A stretch of 63,617 bases of DNA, counting the filler, from Rhabdomonas costata (Eukaryota), in NCBI GenBank assembly GCA_019059605.1. It is 21 parts of 21 records of this genome, joined end to end, with 100 filler letters (N's around TTAATTAATTAA, not from the genome) between each part and the next. Parts side by side here need not be neighbours in the genome. Positions count along the whole stretch, not along the records: positions 24,330 to 27,260 come from JAHMHO010001707.1; 20 more parts are not named here. One strand, written 5' to 3'. Shown piece after piece: positions 6,931-51,469 of the stretch; position 1 is the stretch's first letter; every line of letters begins with the position of its first letter. Under the pieces are notes generated by a model that ran no database searches, had not been told where the DNA came from, and saw only the letters and a program-made list of their open reading frames with translations. Made by a program: the position numbers and the translations under genes.

Positions 6931-8540
6931 CACCTCTAACTCCTTCTGGAAATGTACCACAATCTTCCCCATCTCCCAAAGTCTACAATGGTGCCACTTT
7001 GTAGTGTCCTACAACTCTGCAGTGGTCAAGTTGAAATACCTCTTCCTCACTACTGGGTCAAGCCAGTAGTCGGCCAACCAATCCTCTGGATCACCTGCTG
7101 CTGCAACCCTTAAAGATGCACAGAGCTGTCCATCGAACCTCAACGTCGCCAAACTCAACAAACACTCCATCTCTGCAAATCCCAGATTCGCCTCGTCCAC
7201 TGGGTGCCTAGACAAGGCATCGGCAGCGACATTTTGCCTTCCAGGAATGTGGGCGAACTGCAAAGTATACATCTCTAATGTATCCAACCACCGCACTTGC
7301 ATTGGCGAATGCCTGGGGTTCTTATGCAAATATCTTAACGCTGAGTTGTCCGTGTGACCTTTGACATCTGAACCCATCAAGTAATGCCTCCCTTCTTCCA
7401 ACGTGTATACCAACGTTAGCATCTTCTTCTCATGCACTGGGTAGTTTTTCTATGCAGTGGAGAGCTTTCTGGAACGACACGCCACCAATTTAATCTTTCC
7501 ATCTTCACCTTGCTGCGAAAGCGTTGCTCCAATCCACACCTCTGAAGCATCCATGTGAAGCACCATTGGCTTCTTAAAATATGGCACAACCAAAACTGGA
7601 GATTTCAACAGTCTGGCTTTCAACCTCTGAAACGCAGTCTCCTGCGCTTCACTCCAAACCCACTTCTTCTTCTTCTTCATTATGTCTGTCAGTCGGGATG
7701 CCACTGTGGCGTAATATTCCACGAATATCTGGTAAAAACCACACAACGCAAGAAAACTCTTCACATCTGTAGGGTTCCGCAACTGCGGCCATTTATATAC
7801 TGCCATCAGTTTCCTAGGCTGGGGTCTAATACCATTTCTCCCACAATAAATCCACAATACTCGAATTCTGGCTGTGCAAACATACACTTCTCTGGATTTG
7901 CAAGAAACTTCTCGTTATCCAACCTCTGGTACAACACCCGCAAAGCTTCTAGATGGGCTTCCAAGGTCTCTGTATGGACGAGAATGTCGTCCTCGTACGC
8001 ACCTGTAATCTCTCGCAGATCCTCAAGAACGAAGTCCACGGTTCTCTGAAACGTGGCTGGAGCATTACACAACACAAGTGGCATTACTTTGAATTGGAAC
8101 AAACCGTACTTTGTCTTGAATGCCGTCATCTCCACATGCTCTGGATGAATGCGGATCTGATGAAATCCCGCATGCAAATCTAGTTTGGAAAACCACTGCG
8201 CCTTTCCCGCGTGATCAATCATCTCGTAAATTCGAGGTAAATGGTATACATCTGTAACATTGATTGCATTCAAAGGTCTGTAATTCACGCACAGCCGCAA
8301 CTTACCGTTGGCCTTTGGAACGAACAGCACCACTGCGCCATAAGGCGAGGTTGCTGGCTCTGTAAAACCAAGCTCCTGGAGACTCTTCAGTTGCTTCCGC
8401 AATTCTTCATCTTCCGCCGTGGACATTCGGTACAGCCTCTGGGATGGTACCTTACTTTCAGGCTTTAAATCAATCCTGTGGTCCGTCCTCATCAAATGGG
8501 GTAACCCTCCGGGAACTGAAGCTGGAAAGATGTGCACAAA
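6931..8540 (-). mobile_element. Decayed Ty3/Gypsy LTR-retrotransposon pol fragment (RT + RNase H)
   Basis: SPYGAVVLFVPKANGKLRLCVNYRPLN, FSKLDLHAGFHQIRI, TAFKTKYGLFQFKVMPLVLCNAPATFQR, YEDDILV; RNase H DAS...GATLSQ, TDNSAL, IPGRQNVAADALSR. Broken by a frameshift (about 7860-7890) and a stop (7450). No LTRs seen. Confidence 0.95.
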
Positions 8541-24329: not shown

Positions 24330-25119
24330 GAGGCCCTCCACCCGGGCCCTGAGCTCCAGCATCTCCTCCTCAGCCTGGGCAAGCCCTGTCGCACATTTGC
24401 AAAGAGCGACAGGAGCTTGGCGAAGGGCCTCCCAAAAACCTGGCCCGACAGAATTTTACGCTTTCACGGTTTCCAGCTTTTTGGCATTTTCTCGGTACAA
24501 TATCTTATGCATGACCTCGGGTAAAATTATGGATCTCCAAGCAAGTTGTAATTGTATCGATGCCACAGAATGCTTATATCATGTGTGCACATCCGCGCAA
24601 AAACTGCGAACCGTCATGAACCCTTCGACTCCGTAGTCAAACCCACCTTACCGGAGGCCCAAAGTCGATTTCAACCATCATGTTTGCGAATGAACTTTTT
24701 GTAAGTCGAAAGGCAGATTTTTTTTGCTGCGGTAGTGAGGACTTTGTCCATTCCATTTTACGAACCGCTTGGAGGCTCTGAGCGCTGAATGCGGACCAGT
24801 GTGAGTGAGAGATATCCTAGGCAGCAACAGCAATGCTCTGCTTATGCACCCCGGCCACAGCATGCGACAATGCCACCATCAATGCGAATACCTGCACAAA
24901 GACTTCCGTTCGGGTCTCTCTACAAAAGAAGCCACCAACTACCGGTGTTTGGTTGCGCATTTCCCTCGTGCATGGGGCCTGTGAGCGCACGTTCCTTGCT
25001 TGCGAGCCAGCAGATGGATCTGGGTGCGCGCCATTTCTTCCTCCAGCAGTTGCACCTCAGCCACCAGCACCGCGTGCTGCTCCTTAGAAGTGGTCATCGG
25101 AAACAGCTTTGAGGCGGAC
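24330..25119 (-). CDS. Coiled-coil protein, partial (exons about 25119-25004 and 24385-24330)
   Basis: MTTSKEQHAVLVAEVQLLEEEMARTQIHLLA and LAQAEEEMLELRARVEGL; heptad pattern and GC3-rich codons. A direct join needs a GC donor (C|gcaagc). Confidence 0.55.
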
Positions 25120-25699
25120 CTTCATAAAAAGGACTTACGTGAGTACATGCCAAAGCCAGCCGAGAGCAGCCGCCTTCGCATATGGCAGTGCTCAGCCAGA
25201 GAAACAAAAGAATAGGAAGGCCCAACAACGCAGCACAGGGTGTGCCACCTGGATAAAAGCAAGGAAAAAGGGTGGCGGTCAACCGTGTCGGGTTTGTTTT
25301 GATTCTCGATCGCTTTACAAGCCAATGCTCGGCACAACAAAGCCCCGAATATCGAACGGAACCAATTGCCTCCAGTGTATTCACACACAATGAGCACACA
25401 GGGCAAGAGGCACCGACATTTGGGGAGGCCAGTATGAGGAACAACAGGGATTATGGTTTACGATGTGGAAGAAAATTCCAGAAAATCGATACTAGCCAAG
25501 CCTCAAATGTCAAGGGAGAGGTCGATTTTGGGGACTTAGGCGCGATCAACAAGCACGAGGCGCGATCAACAAGCACGAGAACAACATATTCGCATTCCTC
25601 AAACATTAGCTAATACTTAGCCTACATTCCTGACACAAACGCGGCTGGCAGACGCGGTCGCAAATCACACTCCTTCACAATTGTTCCCGCCGACAACCG

Positions 25700-27253
25700 T
25701 TACAGTGACAGAGCGCAGGCAGGGCCGGGGGTGGGGCGCTGTAGCCTGCGGGAAGAGACTCCGCAATGCGGCAGTGGCTTGTCCGCCTCCAGGAGGGTCT
25801 CATCGCTCTCCGCCCCAAAAGGCAACTCAAACAGCATGGCAGTGTCCTTGTAGCGGAATATGGAGAAGGTGGCTTGGTTTCCCCAAAGATCATCCTCCCG
25901 TGACACCAATGCATCGGGCTTCAGCCATGACCAAAGCAGGCGGAGGCTGCTGCCCCAGATCACCCCCTTGAAGGGCCACGGCTTCCAGGAAAGGTCCCCG
26001 TCGAACTCAGTGTATGGGAAGTGATCCCAGTACAGAAAGTCCGCGTCGCTGTCATCGGAGTCGTGGTCGTTGGATGGTCTTCTAAATAGAAACGGGTCTC
26101 GGGCAAGGGGGTGTGCGGGGTCCACCTCGCGGGATTCCTCGGCGCCGGGGGCCAGCGGCTCCACGTGGAGGGCAACGTAAGCTGAGTGGGCTTCTTCGAA
26201 ATCAGGCTGCCGGTTGACTGCGGTCCGACTCTTCTGAAAACACTCAAAGAGCACATCTACGGTTCGGAAGATGGGTACCACCCCAAATGCGTCTCTGACG
26301 GCCTGGTACAAAACTGCGTCCCTGCCCCGCAGAAGAGTTGCGGACGGGGACTCCTCACCATCCGTGCTGTACTGGTGCTGAAGAAGAAAGCCGCCATACG
26401 TGGCCCCAGCATACTGCGCAACCCTACACAGGCGAAGGGCACGGTCCCTAAGAAAGCAAGCTAGCCGCTTCGTGTCGCCCTCCCCGAACAAGATGTCCCG
26501 GAACAGGCGGCAGGACACGGAGGCCGCGATTGCGTCCTTGAAAGGGAGGAATGCTGCCGCGAGGCCGAGGCAGTCAACTGGAACCCGAGATAGCAGCCGC
26601 GACTGGTGCTGCCGCAGGGGATTCAGGTCCACGATCGGCAAATGAAGCACCTCGCCGGTGAGGTACAAGTTGTAGGTGGCCGCCAGCCGAGTCCCAGAGC
26701 GCATCTTTGGAACAAAGTGGAGCTGCGAGCAGAACCAGGCCGCCCACTGCCCAGCCTCGCCACAGGCCCACGTGCGAAGCTCATCCTTGTCCTTGGTGTT
26801 CTCCCCGCGAACCACGAACCCGACCTGGGCATCCTGCCCTGTGCACTGAATGGTCAGGCTTATGGTCATGATGTGCCCCTCCCGCTTCATCGAATCCTTG
26901 TGGGTTTTGAAAAAACTGGAGCGGCCGTACAGCAGCAGGTCATGCAATTCTGCACGAAGCCTGCGGCCAGGCGTTGCCGCAACCGCAACCGCATCGACAA
27001 CGGATTCCAGCGCAGGCCAGACAACGTCCAACTGGGCCTCCTCGATGTTGACCTTCCAGACTTTTCGGACGGAGAGATCCACCACCGTCTCGGCACCCAT
27101 CCCACAGGCGGCGGGCTTCGCAAACCGCCTCAAGTAAGTCAGCGACACGGGTTCACCACTTGTCCGTTGAATGACCTTGGGCAACGCCAGGGCTGCGGTG
27201 CGGCCGGCAAAGAAAGGGTAGTCGTGCACCGCCATCAAAGCGCCGTAGACCAC
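25700..27253 (-). CDS. 2OG-Fe(II) oxygenase-family protein with an internal F-box; intronless, possibly 5'-truncated at the contig edge
   Basis: Uninterrupted 517-aa ORF. LHDLLLYGRSSFFKTHKD (HxD), WAAWFCSQLHFVPKMRSGTRLAATYNLY (distal His, Arg), then F-box-like LLSRVPVDCLGLAAAFLPFKDAIAASVSCRLFRDIL. Confidence 0.85.
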   Translation of the reverse strand: MVYGALMAVHDYPFFAGRTAALALPKVIQRTSGEPVSLTYLRRFAKPAACGMGAETVVDLSVRKVWKVNIEEAQLDVVWPALESVVDAVAVAATPGRRLRAELHDLLLYGRSSFFKTHKDSMKREGHIMTISLTIQCTGQDAQVGFVVRGENTKDKDELRTWACGEAGQWAAWFCSQLHFVPKMRSGTRLAATYNLYLTGEVLHLPIVDLNPLRQHQSRLLSRVPVDCLGLAAAFLPFKDAIAASVSCRLFRDILFGEGDTKRLACFLRDRALRLCRVAQYAGATYGGFLLQHQYSTDGEESPSATLLRGRDAVLYQAVRDAFGVVPIFRTVDVLFECFQKSRTAVNRQPDFEEAHSAYVALHVEPLAPGAEESREVDPAHPLARDPFLFRRPSNDHDSDDSDADFLYWDHFPYTEFDGDLSWKPWPFKGVIWGSSLRLLWSWLKPDALVSREDDLWGNQATFSIFRYKDTAMLFELPFGAESDETLLEADKPLPHCGVSSRRLQRPTPGPACALSL

Positions 27254-27926
27254 CCCCCCCNNNNNNNNNNNNNNNNNNNNNNNNNNNNNNNNNNNNNNNN
27301 NNNNTTAATTAATTAANNNNNNNNNNNNNNNNNNNNNNNNNNNNNNNNNNNNNNNNNNNNGGGAGGAGAAGTTGGAGGAAAAGGACAACATGCGTGTGAG
27401 AGGAGGGAAAAGGCACGTAAATGTGGCAATGGGGTGGAACCAGTCGGCAGGAATGGAATCTGTGAAGAAAGCAAACAGGCGAATGTGGGAATCGGGACAC
27501 GTAGGTGGTAGTGAAGGATCGAAGGAAAGAAGTCAAAGAAGAAACCCAAAACAGAGATCGACAAGACACTGTACATCTACGTCTAAACGGGTGGGCACGA
27601 GGGAGGGAAGGTTGGCGGGGCCAGATAAGGCTGTCGGGGACCACCCCGCAACCCAGTTGCCCCAATTGTTGGCTACCACAGGTCCGAGTACAATTTTTTG
27701 TTTTTAAATTTTACAACGATAACAAAAAAGTTGGACTCTAGACAGACCGAGCTGAGTCAGCAGCGCAAAAACTTAAACAATGGTGGAAACTTTTTAAGGT
27801 GACGGAGAAGAAACACAGAAACAGGCGCAGAAAATTCAGGTGTCCCTGAGTCAACCCTAATCCCAAAACGCAGGCCAGTTGCGTGTTCACAGCTGTTTTC
27901 TTTCTTTCTGGCAGGTTTTCTTCACG

Positions 27927-48473: not shown

Positions 48474-48772
48474 CACNNNNNNNNNNNNNNNNNNNNNNNN
48501 NNNNNNNNNNNNNNNNNNNNTTAATTAATTAANNNNNNNNNNNNNNNNNNNNNNNNNNNNNNNNNNNNNNNNNNNNTCGACGATAAAGCTCACGCATGGA
48601 TCCGCGTTTGAATCCCGTTTTCGATGAGAAATGGACAATCGCAACGTGGCCAGGTAACTCATGTTGCGTACCGGTTTTGGCATGATGCCCGAATCGCTTC
48701 TTGCTTCTCAGTTTGTTGTGATTGACGTCTGGACGGCTGCAGCTTGCGAGCTGTCTGTTTTTGTGACACAAG

Positions 48773-51469
48773 ATGAGCGGTGCCCACTCGCTTCCCTTGC
48801 GCCTTCTCGTTGTGGTAATCCTCGCGCTCTGCTGTGCGCTGGCCTTCGCGGTTCGGCTGTTCTCTGTGTTGAAGTACGAGGCAGTGATCCATGAGTTTGA
48901 CCCCTACTTCAACTACCGTAGCACCCAGGCGGCGCTGCGGATGGGTTTGCAGGAGTTCTACAACTGGTTTGATGACATGGTGTGTTCAATGCTCCACGAC
49001 TCTTGTGCTTCTCTTTACTGCAGACGCTACGGAGCGACGGCTTGTTTTGGGAACTTTCCCGACCTCCCATCTGCCTTGACAAGTTCACGGGTTTCTGGAA
49101 GCTGCTGTATTTCGGAGGACAGTAGGAAAATCAGGGGTGCGCAGGCATTATGGGGACCCACACACACACTATTAAGTGCACTTTGCCCCCCCCCCCCGTC
49201 AACGGTGCATTTTACGAACGAAAGTTTGATTGCATTTAGGGTGTGTTGCTTGGGGGGGGGGGCTCTGTGATGGAGCCAGTCATGATCTAATGCCTTCCGG
49301 CTTCGTTTTCTCCGTTTTCGGTGCATTTGATGGAAAGGTGTGGTATCCTCTGGGGCGGCATGTGGGGCACACGGTGTACCCCGGGCTGATGATCACTGCG
49401 GCAGCCGCGGATGCTGCGCTGCGGGCGCTTCACTTTGTCGTGGAGCCCCGGCTGATCTGCGTGCTGATGGGGCCCATGTTTGCCGCGCTGACCTCCCTGG
49501 TGACATACTTCCTTGGCAAAGAGGTGTTTTGTTGTTTTCCCGTTATTCTCCGTGCTTGGAGTGCATAACTTCGTTCTTTTTATGAGGTGAAATAATCTCA
49601 GAGTTCCGGCAGGAGCTGACAACATCCACTTTTTAATATGTATGTCTCCTCGGAACACTTTCCCCCGCGTCCTTATTATTAAGGAGGGGGGTGTTCTTGG
49701 CTATCTGTTCCTTTTGATCTCATTTCTGTCGATTTCTCTTGCGCATTATCTTTGTGGGCGCCACACTTTCACCTGCGCTTGCCCCACGATTATTTGTGCA
49801 GCTTTGGAGTCCCGGTGCAGGTCTGTTCTCGGCGGCGCTCATCGCCGTGGCTCCCGGGTACATCTCCCGCTCCACAGCCGGAGGGTACGCAGGGATTCCT
49901 CTCTTCCTTCTCCCTTTCGTGGGTTCTTTTGAAGCGTTTTGAATTTTCTGTAACATTTGGAATCGCCGTTGGGCTATTGTAAGCGCTGAGGTCAGTGCAC
50001 GGCGCGGCCGGACGTTGGATGATGAGATGATGCGATGTCCTCCTCATCCAATTTCTCGCTCTTAATTTTGTGTTGGTGGTGATTGTGGTTGTGGTGAACC
50101 TGTTCAGGTACGACAACGAGTGTGTTGCGATCTTTGCGATGCTGGTTGTTCTGCTGGGCTTTGTGAAGGCGGTCAATTCTGGCTCGTTGTTGTGGAGCAT
50201 GGTGGGGTCCCTGGGCTATTTTTACATGGTCACCGCGTGGGGCGGGTACATCTACGTCGTGAATCTTCTGCCGGCCTACACCTACGCTCTGGTTCTTCAG
50301 CTCCTTTCTGTGTAAAGTCTGGCCCTTCTCTCCGAGTCCCTGAATGCTCCCGTCTTGTCACGTGGCAGTTCTCAGAGCGTTTCTTTCGTTTTCTCTATTT
50401 AGTGTATGCCCACTGATGCCAATTACTGTTCAGTTGGCTCCTGCGTAGAGCAATGTCGGGCATTCCTTCCTCCCCAGCTTCCCTCAATTGACGCCCTGTC
50501 CTGGCTTCTAGTACTCAACAGACTACCCCCCCCCCTGTGAGCTTTGAGGTTTACCCATCGCTCCATCGAGAAACGACATCGGATTATAGAGAAGAGAGAG
50601 CGTCAGAAAGTCGGGTTAGAGAGAACGGCGTTCTGTGTGTTTGGCCTAATTTGACCTAAATTCCAGGTGGCTCTCGGCCGGTACTCTCACCGCTTGTACG
50701 TCGCCTACAGCACGTTTTACGTCTTTGGAGTCGTGCTGGCGATGCAGGTGCCCTTTGTGGGGTTTCAGGCGGTGCACGGCGCCGCGCACTTTTCCAGCCA
50801 TGCCGTCTTCGCCTTGCTTCAGCTCACGGCCCTGGTGAAGTTCGTGAAAGGGTGTGCTTCTTCTCCGCTCCTTTCCCTCTGGAAGATTCCGCACGGTTCT
50901 GGATGTCACTTTGTAAATCCCACGAAATGGTGGCACGCTTTTTGAATAGCTAACACTTATTCATTTTGTGGGAGTGCAGTTCCATGCTTCTCCGCTGGAG
51001 CCTTGGCGTGTGTAGCGTTGTTACGGTGATCTGGGCTTCAGCCTGAATTCCGGCACGGCACGAAGCCCACCCTTCTTCCCGCCTTTTGGTGTTTGTTCAG
51101 ACACTGATTGAGCATCGGCAAATGCACGAGGACCCAAATCCCGTTCTCCAGGTGGGAGAGAAAGACTGCCATCTCCGCGCCGAACCAGACTATTGGTGGC
51201 ATGTCTTCTCCAGATTGCTGTCAAGGAGTTTCATAGGCTGCAATTGAATCCCTAACTGTATTTCTTCTCAGGCTGCTTTCCCCAAAGTCCTACCGACACT
51301 TGCTTTTCGTGGCTGGAACTTTCGGAGGGATTACCGTGGCCGTGGCAGCGGCGGCTGTGCTCTCCTTCGGATACATCGCCCCTCAGTCGGCGTCCCGCTT
51401 CCGCACGCTGCTCACCCCCCACGCGGACACGATTCCGATCATCTCCTCTGTGAGCGAGCACCACGCCAC
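48773..51469 (+). CDS. STT3: Oligosaccharyltransferase catalytic subunit STT3, 5' half (exons 48773-48979, 49338-49523, 49802-49884, 50108-50291, 50667-50851, 51272-51469)
   Basis: [67 protein letters not shown]; five in-phase GT-AG introns. Confidence 0.97.

Follow-up and report, generated by a model that had tools for sequence, protein, structure and literature searches.

The window analysed here, a 63,617-nucleotide stretch of the Rhabdomonas costata assembly GCA_019059605.1, consists mostly of ~2.9-kb contigs chained through N-linkers, so genes past a linker are not neighbours of the gene of interest, whose own contig spans positions 24330-27260 only (G000:C1707). On its minus strand this contig carries the 3' part of a gene for a predicted 2-oxoglutarate (2OG)-Fe(II) oxygenase with a putative internal F-box, together with part of a spliced host gene (Table 1). 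The oxygenase frame is open over 519 codons (25700-27259(-)), in agreement with the long uninterrupted frame of the initial annotation, and re-reading the sequence placed HKD, H, R and the F-box where that annotation had put them and located its GFLLQHQY, LRGRDAVLY and WGNQAT motifs (Table 1).

Table 1. Features of the oxygenase contig and of the contig that carries the 5' part of the gene (positions in the window unless a contig is named).
Feature	Position	Strand	Description
Oxygenase/F-box gene, 3' part	25700..27251	-	516 codons + stop, intronless; whole gene ~663 codons
Oxygenase/F-box gene, 5' part	L005 = G000:C46870:212-652		147 codons, own-genome contig
2OG-Fe(II) oxygenase domain	26651..27226	-	window protein (P0001) aa ~12-203; predicted double-stranded beta-helix, top-ranking matches PHD/PPHD/PhyA prolyl hydroxylases
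HKD, iron ligands 1 and 2 (H120, D122)	26894..26902	-	nearly invariant in alignment A2
H181, iron ligand 3	26717..26719	-	alignment A2
R191, predicted 2-oxoglutarate-binding Arg	26687..26689	-	alignment A2
Internal F-box (putative)	26486..26593	-	aa 223-258; moderately degenerate, with three predicted helices; Pfam span 26492-26593
C-terminal alpha/beta module	25814..26404	-	aa ~286-482; GFLLxHxY, LRGRD, PFxGVxW, LWGNxAxF motifs
GFLLQHQY	26369-26392	-	C-terminal module
LRGRDAVLY	26306-26332	-	C-terminal module
WGNQAT	25868-25885	-	C-terminal module
G-run, contig end	27252..27260	-	different letters in other contigs; probably assembly artefact
N/TTAATTAATTAA linker	27261..27360	.	joins unrelated contigs
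Neighbour host gene	24330..25249	-	exon 24994-25249 behind AG acceptor; 609-nt intron 24385-24993; next exon to contig end

The GTG at 27253 that had been taken as the start lies inside the G-run at the contig end, which severs the 5' end of the gene; the frame extends by 147 further codons to an ATG at position 212 of a second contig of the same genome (L005), where it is preceded by a pyrimidine tract and AG. L005 and the window contig overlap with 188 of 189 bases identical. Beyond 27251, contigs from three of four runs (one sample) carry loose letters that correspond to L005 622-651; one X1 contig covers 487 letters of the window and continues for another 161. The G-run is therefore probably an artefact. 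Summed from the two pieces, each of which was analysed separately, the whole protein comprises ~663 residues. Contig pieces of runs X3 and X4 cover parts of the oxygenase frame with no internal joint listed, a hint from one sample that the transcript is unspliced. We infer that these two runs are RNA-derived since their contigs skip the 609-nt intron of the neighbour gene, which lacks GT-AG ends; the same contigs stop at 25250, at an AG, and trail a few loose letters there, which we take to resemble a euglenid spliced leader. The neighbour has an ATG at 25097 and a predicted coiled-coil-like product. Elsewhere in the window, overlapping broken frames at 7009-8540(-) resemble, by eye, the reverse transcriptase and RNase H of an LTR retrotransposon, and exon-like frames at 48767-50215 resemble an STT3 oligosaccharyltransferase subunit. 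Contamination of the assembly as a source of the gene was rejected in view of the spliced gene on the same contig, the paralogs in the same genome and a diplonemid best match, which supports the host origin assumed at the outset.

Architecture of the window protein

A full HMMER search gave 1,964 matches, of which the best 150 were used; the two nearest homologs are 39-41% identical to the window protein. Alignment A2 comprises 47 rows, namely the query and 46 picks, mostly top matches. The oxygenase carries the full metal and 2OG ligand set that had been read from its sequence, with H120, D122, H181 and R191 all intact, and the HxD...H...R set is complete in 44 of the 47 subfamily rows and in all 38 outer rows. 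In P0034 and P0037, members of the subfamily whose F-box scores are clear, H-x-A replaces H-x-D, and the two are possibly inactive or halogenase-like. Pfam assigns 2OG-FeII_Oxy_3 (PF13640) to 43 of the 47 members, and the match of the window protein (E=0.011, 17.1 bits) lies below the curated cut-off of 27; a JmjC Pfam match at E<=0.1 was found in none of the 47. An AlphaFold model (pLDDT 79.9, pTM 0.82) was built from A2 and, sharing its alignment with the sequence-based evidence, is no independent line of support. Its best Foldseek match was 4iw3 (E=5.2e-8), and structure comparison (VIA) identified a Trichoplax PHD (6f0w with a Z score of 14.2 and rmsd 3.9 over 180 aligned residues) and Pseudomonas PPHD (4iw3, Z 14.0, rmsd 4.0, 176 aligned), followed by PiuC, a Burkholderia enzyme, Dictyostelium PhyA (6t8m, Z 12.6) and Tpa1 (Z 12.0). 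These matches have rmsd values of 3.5-4.2 and 11-15% identity. ALKBH7 (Z 10.9) and AlkB-family and small-molecule enzymes (Z 10-11) rank within 2-4 Z units, and with these other 2OG oxygenases so close behind, the class of substrate cannot be read from the fold. The enzyme is likely to be active, and a protein substrate is favoured.

The initial annotation had likened the protein to a family of fungi, protists and bacteria that normally lacks an F-box. This resemblance holds: PF13640 'Fe2OG dioxygenase' proteins such as Pleurotus KAJ8522123.1 and that of a Mobilicoccus MAG share a homologous core followed by LxHxY...L(K/R)GxD, whereas they have a short linker, no F-box and, in many cases, long extra C-terminal regions. 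The linker, defined as the stretch from the oxygenase core to the GxxLxHxY motif, was measurable in 84 of 151 proteins, query included, and its lengths are bimodal, with 37 rows of at least 75 residues (median 85), 47 rows of at most 66 (median 39) and none between. The difference between ~39 residues in the fungal and bacterial relatives and ~85 here amounts to about one F-box, and a bacterial-type relative aligns over both flanks and is gapped at the F-box (hhalign probability 99.7). The insert is absent in 8 of the 47 subfamily rows. Since linkers are bimodal and F-box-less relatives keep both the oxygenase core and the C-terminal module, the F-box is, as judged from these alignments, an insertion between the two, as originally proposed.

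The F-box itself is sub-threshold for Pfam in the window protein (PF00646, E=0.0046, 17.3 bits against a cut-off of 20.5), yet 18 of the 47 A2 rows match an F-box family at E<=0.1, at positions that, where shown, lie just after the oxygenase; such a match is absent in 29 rows. The cut-off is passed by the homologs P0008 (27.5 bits) and P0009 (21.2 bits). Against an F-box profile made from 17 other rows the window protein scores 24.7 bits, while some long-linker proteins score low (P0005 2.3, P0007 0.1 and P0024 1.4 bits), and among six named long-linker homologs a Pfam F-box hint was seen only in Leptophrys (E=0.012) and Prymnesium (E=0.028). When the A2 profile was searched against the PDB at E<=10, three of the five sequences returned were F-box proteins (5k35, E=0.0054; FBXW7, 0.19; FBXO31, 1.6). 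Helices are predicted at residues 228-235, 240-249 and 251-258 with pLDDT 80-90. For the model of residues 218-482, the top eight of 48,161 solved chains were all F-box proteins (FBXO3, FBXO42, FBXL17, FBXW7, AnkB, FBH1, beta-TrCP and FBXL5), with rmsd 2.6-5.8 over 41-62 residues and Z scores of 4.0-4.5, a range that common helical arrangements reach, so that specificity lies in the ranking only; the F-box chain of KDM2B (6bva) was also among the matches. Identity was 29% to FBH1 and 24% to FBXW7. The spacing relative to FBXW7 is gap-free over ~32 residues, although the window protein has Ala in place of three bulkier residues of FBXW7 (Y, V and L). These alignments and profiles leave the F-box apparently well supported at the level of the family and weak in the window protein alone.

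F-box-less relatives also carry the opening motifs of the C-terminal module. Residues 218-482 gave no Foldseek match at E<=0.001, and the search of solved chains, its matches covering mainly model residues 1-68, yielded no fold for the module. An actin family match was found in none of the 47 members, and the matches listed for the tail include no actin fold. At the opposite end, the L005-encoded part contains a Cys/His region overlooked in the initial annotation, in which a pattern search found three C-C-C-H motifs and a CxxC...CSxxC motif. All three C-C-C-H motifs are retained in the paralog L003 and are absent from the paralog L002. Comparison of this region with Pfam and the PDB gave nothing significant (Nab2 fingers, E 1.0-1.1; zf-CCCH_3, E=6). 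A comparable motif precedes the oxygenase in only one of the 46 other subfamily proteins, many of which are short or N-terminally cut; because of this count and of the lack of the motifs in L002, the fingers appear to be a lineage-level addition.

Distribution, paralogs and origin

The long linker occurs in 36 proteins besides the query among the 84 measurable rows, spread over distant eukaryotic groups. This spread rests on nine homologs with organism names among 28 looked up: the linker is long in the diplonemids Sulcionema and Lacrimia, Leptophrys (Rhizaria), Prymnesium (Haptophyta), a dinoflagellate and Symbiodinium microadriaticum, and short in another Symbiodinium, a Scyphosphaera cluster and Pleurotus. 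Such a spread does not support a recent or private event. Two quick, unrooted trees of the oxygenase domain were made from 85 rows, one measurable row with repeated domains being left out and two truncated insert-bearing rows added. In both, a starred branch (support 95 and 99) splits off 38 short-linker rows, including Pleurotus, from 39 long and 8 short rows. The simplest reading would be one gain of the insert and several losses; because the trees are unrooted the direction of change is only inferred. The query groups with Sulcionema and P0006, with support of 95 and 93 in the two trees, a placement that fits inheritance within Euglenozoa and sits poorly with a recent arrival.

A search of the Rhabdomonas genome gave seven matches on six contigs, including the gene itself and L005. 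Two of the paralogs are N-terminal fragments with an open frame (52% and 64%). L004 (G000:C39633; 51-58%) is a C-terminal fragment that changes frame near query residues 344-354, and L006 (G000:C55781) has decayed and contains two stops. Against three paralogs pS is 0.66-0.82, and dN/dS, computable in three of five comparisons, is 0.06-0.22, an approximate range since dS approaches saturation. The duplications are accordingly old, and purifying selection has acted on the frame.

The recent retroposition or horizontal acquisition that the lack of introns had suggested is not supported, given the spread of the long linker over distant eukaryotes, paralogs at or near synonymous saturation and a domain phylogeny that places the query beside a diplonemid. 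Recent retroposition was rejected, as no poly-A was seen after the stop and no leader-like remnant on L005, and as the diverged paralogs are also open over the stretches available. Recent transfer from a giant virus was likewise rejected: the highest-ranking entries of a viral fold search are giant-virus proteins of 390-660 residues (E to 4e-11), yet the best viral folds are 12-15% identical, whereas the two nearest homologs reach 39-41%. The intronless family in this genome may go back to an old retroposition or transfer, and viruses may have had an old role in the spread of the subfamily. The subfamily also includes long, low-complexity members, P0061 and P0135, whose style presumably recalls pandoravirus proteins; P0061 has an F-box-like match at E=0.0078.

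Word-index protein searches with P0001 and A2 gave nothing, against 1,964 matches by full HMMER, and are therefore of low sensitivity. A PDB sequence search with P0001 gave no matches, and NCBIfam, PADLOC and PHROGs contained nothing for the window protein. The PADLOC Cas-associated 2OG model matches seven of 11 proteins, all of the outer family, which we take to be a generic oxygenase match. Neither a scan of viral contigs with P0001, P0061 and P0135 nor a metagenome scan with P0008, each of which reaches close relatives only, found any relatives, and the ESM Atlas yielded only leads below 0.9. In bacteria, six of 151 genomes match P0059 at E<=1e-30, and the flanking frames, read by eye, show no shared neighbour.

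Known systems and proposed function

Proteins that join a 2OG oxygenase to an F-box are known: animal KDM2A/B (FBXL11/10) and the F-box-JmjC proteins of plants do so, but their oxygenase is of the JmjC class and their domain order and partner domains differ from those of the present protein. The initial annotation pointed to this KDM2/JmjC precedent and missed a closer one, JcdI/FBXO13. Dictyostelium JcdI, for which Skp1 binding has been demonstrated experimentally, combines an N-terminal F-box with a JmjC domain of the JmjD6-like kind; its O2 effect required catalysis and not the F-box, which, its authors suggest, may set the level of the protein, and they note that other O2-sensing mechanisms must exist (PMC9485057). 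Toxoplasma FBXO13 similarly comprises an F-box and a JmjC dioxygenase (PMC11570480). JcdI/JcdH and FBXO13 share with the present subfamily the union of F-box and non-heme O2/2OG dioxygenase in one chain and the spread among protists. They differ in that the fold here is PHD/P4H-like, in that the F-box is internal and C-terminal to the catalytic core rather than N-terminal, and in that Skp1 binding by JcdI is experimental whereas the Rhabdomonas protein is known from sequence and predicted structure. The latter thus lacks two defining features of JcdI/FBXO13, domain class and order, and by analogy may nevertheless work alike. PHD/EGLN, Pseudomonas PPHD and the PhyA enzymes of Dictyostelium and Toxoplasma are the top-ranking solved folds (Z 11.6-14.2) and share HxD...H...R, although at 9-15% identity and rmsd ~4, and they lack both F-box and C-terminal module. 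No published description of an F-box-bearing PHD-like subfamily was found in a search outside of which most subscription journals lie, and the supplement text of PMC9485057, in the portion available, has no mention of oxygenase terms, while F-box candidate tables may lie in its other files. The subfamily of PHD-like oxygenases with internal F-box is widespread among protists and apparently undescribed.

We give an even chance to the reading that the Rhabdomonas protein is an old, host-encoded euglenozoan member of this protist dioxygenase subfamily, which gained an F-box and, in the manner of JcdI, is regulated through SCF docking. With Fe(II), O2 and 2-oxoglutarate the enzyme would hydroxylate a macromolecule, most probably at a residue of a protein, and the C-terminal module and N-terminal Cys/His fingers may help to hold the substrate. 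The F-box would dock on Skp1 and tie the oxygenase to an SCF ligase, and docking would mainly control the level or assembly of the enzyme itself, as an add-on dispensable for catalysis. Docking is taken as regulatory because close F-box-less relatives keep the catalytic residues and because the C-terminal module pre-dates the F-box. The studied O2-sensing route in protists without HIF, through PhyA, Skp1 and F-box proteins, gives only a partial picture, and the subfamily would represent a second, unrelated way to join an O2-consuming enzyme, here with a PHD-like core, with the SCF machinery. Close relatives with and without the F-box are natural controls, so its role is directly testable, and the subfamily offers a handle on a large set of uncharacterised fungal and bacterial oxygenases.

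In animals hydroxylation and recognition are divided between PHD and VHL, and the two might be combined here in a single chain: an SCF substrate receptor would hydroxylate a client and keep it bound for ubiquitylation, so that client turnover would depend directly on O2 and 2-oxoglutarate. The PHD-like fold, the conservation of the C-terminal module motifs across the subfamily and the position of the F-box directly N-terminal to that module speak for such a receptor, the substrate-binding domain of F-box proteins usually being C-terminal to the F-box. However, bacterial-type and fungal relatives without an F-box already have the opening motifs of the module. These are thus older than the F-box, and the module more probably belongs to the enzyme; the insert is also missing in the eight subfamily rows mentioned above. 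We consider this reading unlikely. We are just as doubtful of its broadest form, in which pan-protist single-chain, O2/2-oxoglutarate-gated SCF receptors would be a one-protein analogue of PHD-VHL without HIF, directed in Rhabdomonas by CCCH-like fingers to an RNA-bound client; were it true, oxygen would be linked to post-transcriptional control. It is improbable that the F-box is vestigial in the Rhabdomonas copy, an inherited spacer that has lost Skp1 binding, as its sub-threshold Pfam score, the small residues at hydrophobic positions and relatives with decayed or missing inserts might indicate; the gap-free FBXW7 spacing, the three confidently predicted helices and the identity to the FBH1 and FBXW7 F-boxes argue against decay. 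If it were vestigial, the value of the finding would shrink to a note on domain evolution.

An RNA or ribonucleoprotein substrate, with CCCH-like fingers recruiting the enzyme, a base or RNA-bound protein being modified and SCF acting as regulator, seems quite improbable. The three C-C-C-H motifs, all kept in L003, their non-significant likeness to Nab2 fingers and zf-CCCH_3, and the presence of Tpa1/OGFOD1 and AlkB-family folds (Z 10-12) among the matches are consistent with it, but the fingers have no significant family match, the motif is confined as described to one other subfamily protein and is missing from L002, and PHD-type folds outrank AlkB-type ones. Very improbable in our estimate is that the tethered oxygenase hydroxylates Skp1 itself in place of PhyA. 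Dictyostelium PhyA is among the top folds, and two host Skp1 last exons encode an F-T-P-E-E-E proline, which we take to be the equivalent of Pro143 of Dictyostelium Skp1. Yet identity to PhyA is only 13%, and the oxygenase family is intact in bacteria and fungi, in which we know of no PhyA-type Skp1 pathway. The C-terminal part of Skp1, in which this proline lies, wraps an F-box, so that its hydroxylation in cis looks sterically unlikely. Pro143 is placed within the C-terminal 40 residues of Skp1, which are disordered in free Skp1 (PMC7864055).

The reading that we prefer, docking of the oxygenase on an SCF ligase, involves a host Skp1, for which the genome contains several divergent loci (L008, L009, L010, L011 and L014-L016, G000); the best full-length matches of one Skp1 exon include Heteronema and Anisonema proteins, which, like the unconventional intron of the neighbour gene, would fit a euglenid or near relative as host. 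A further Skp1 with one short intron (L007, G000:C76671) is unlike the other copies and, to our eye, looks fungal, so the assembly may contain contigs of a foreign eukaryote. On L015 a second Skp1 begins, with its first exon, ~1 kb downstream of the last exon of one copy, an arrangement that suggests a Skp1 tandem array.
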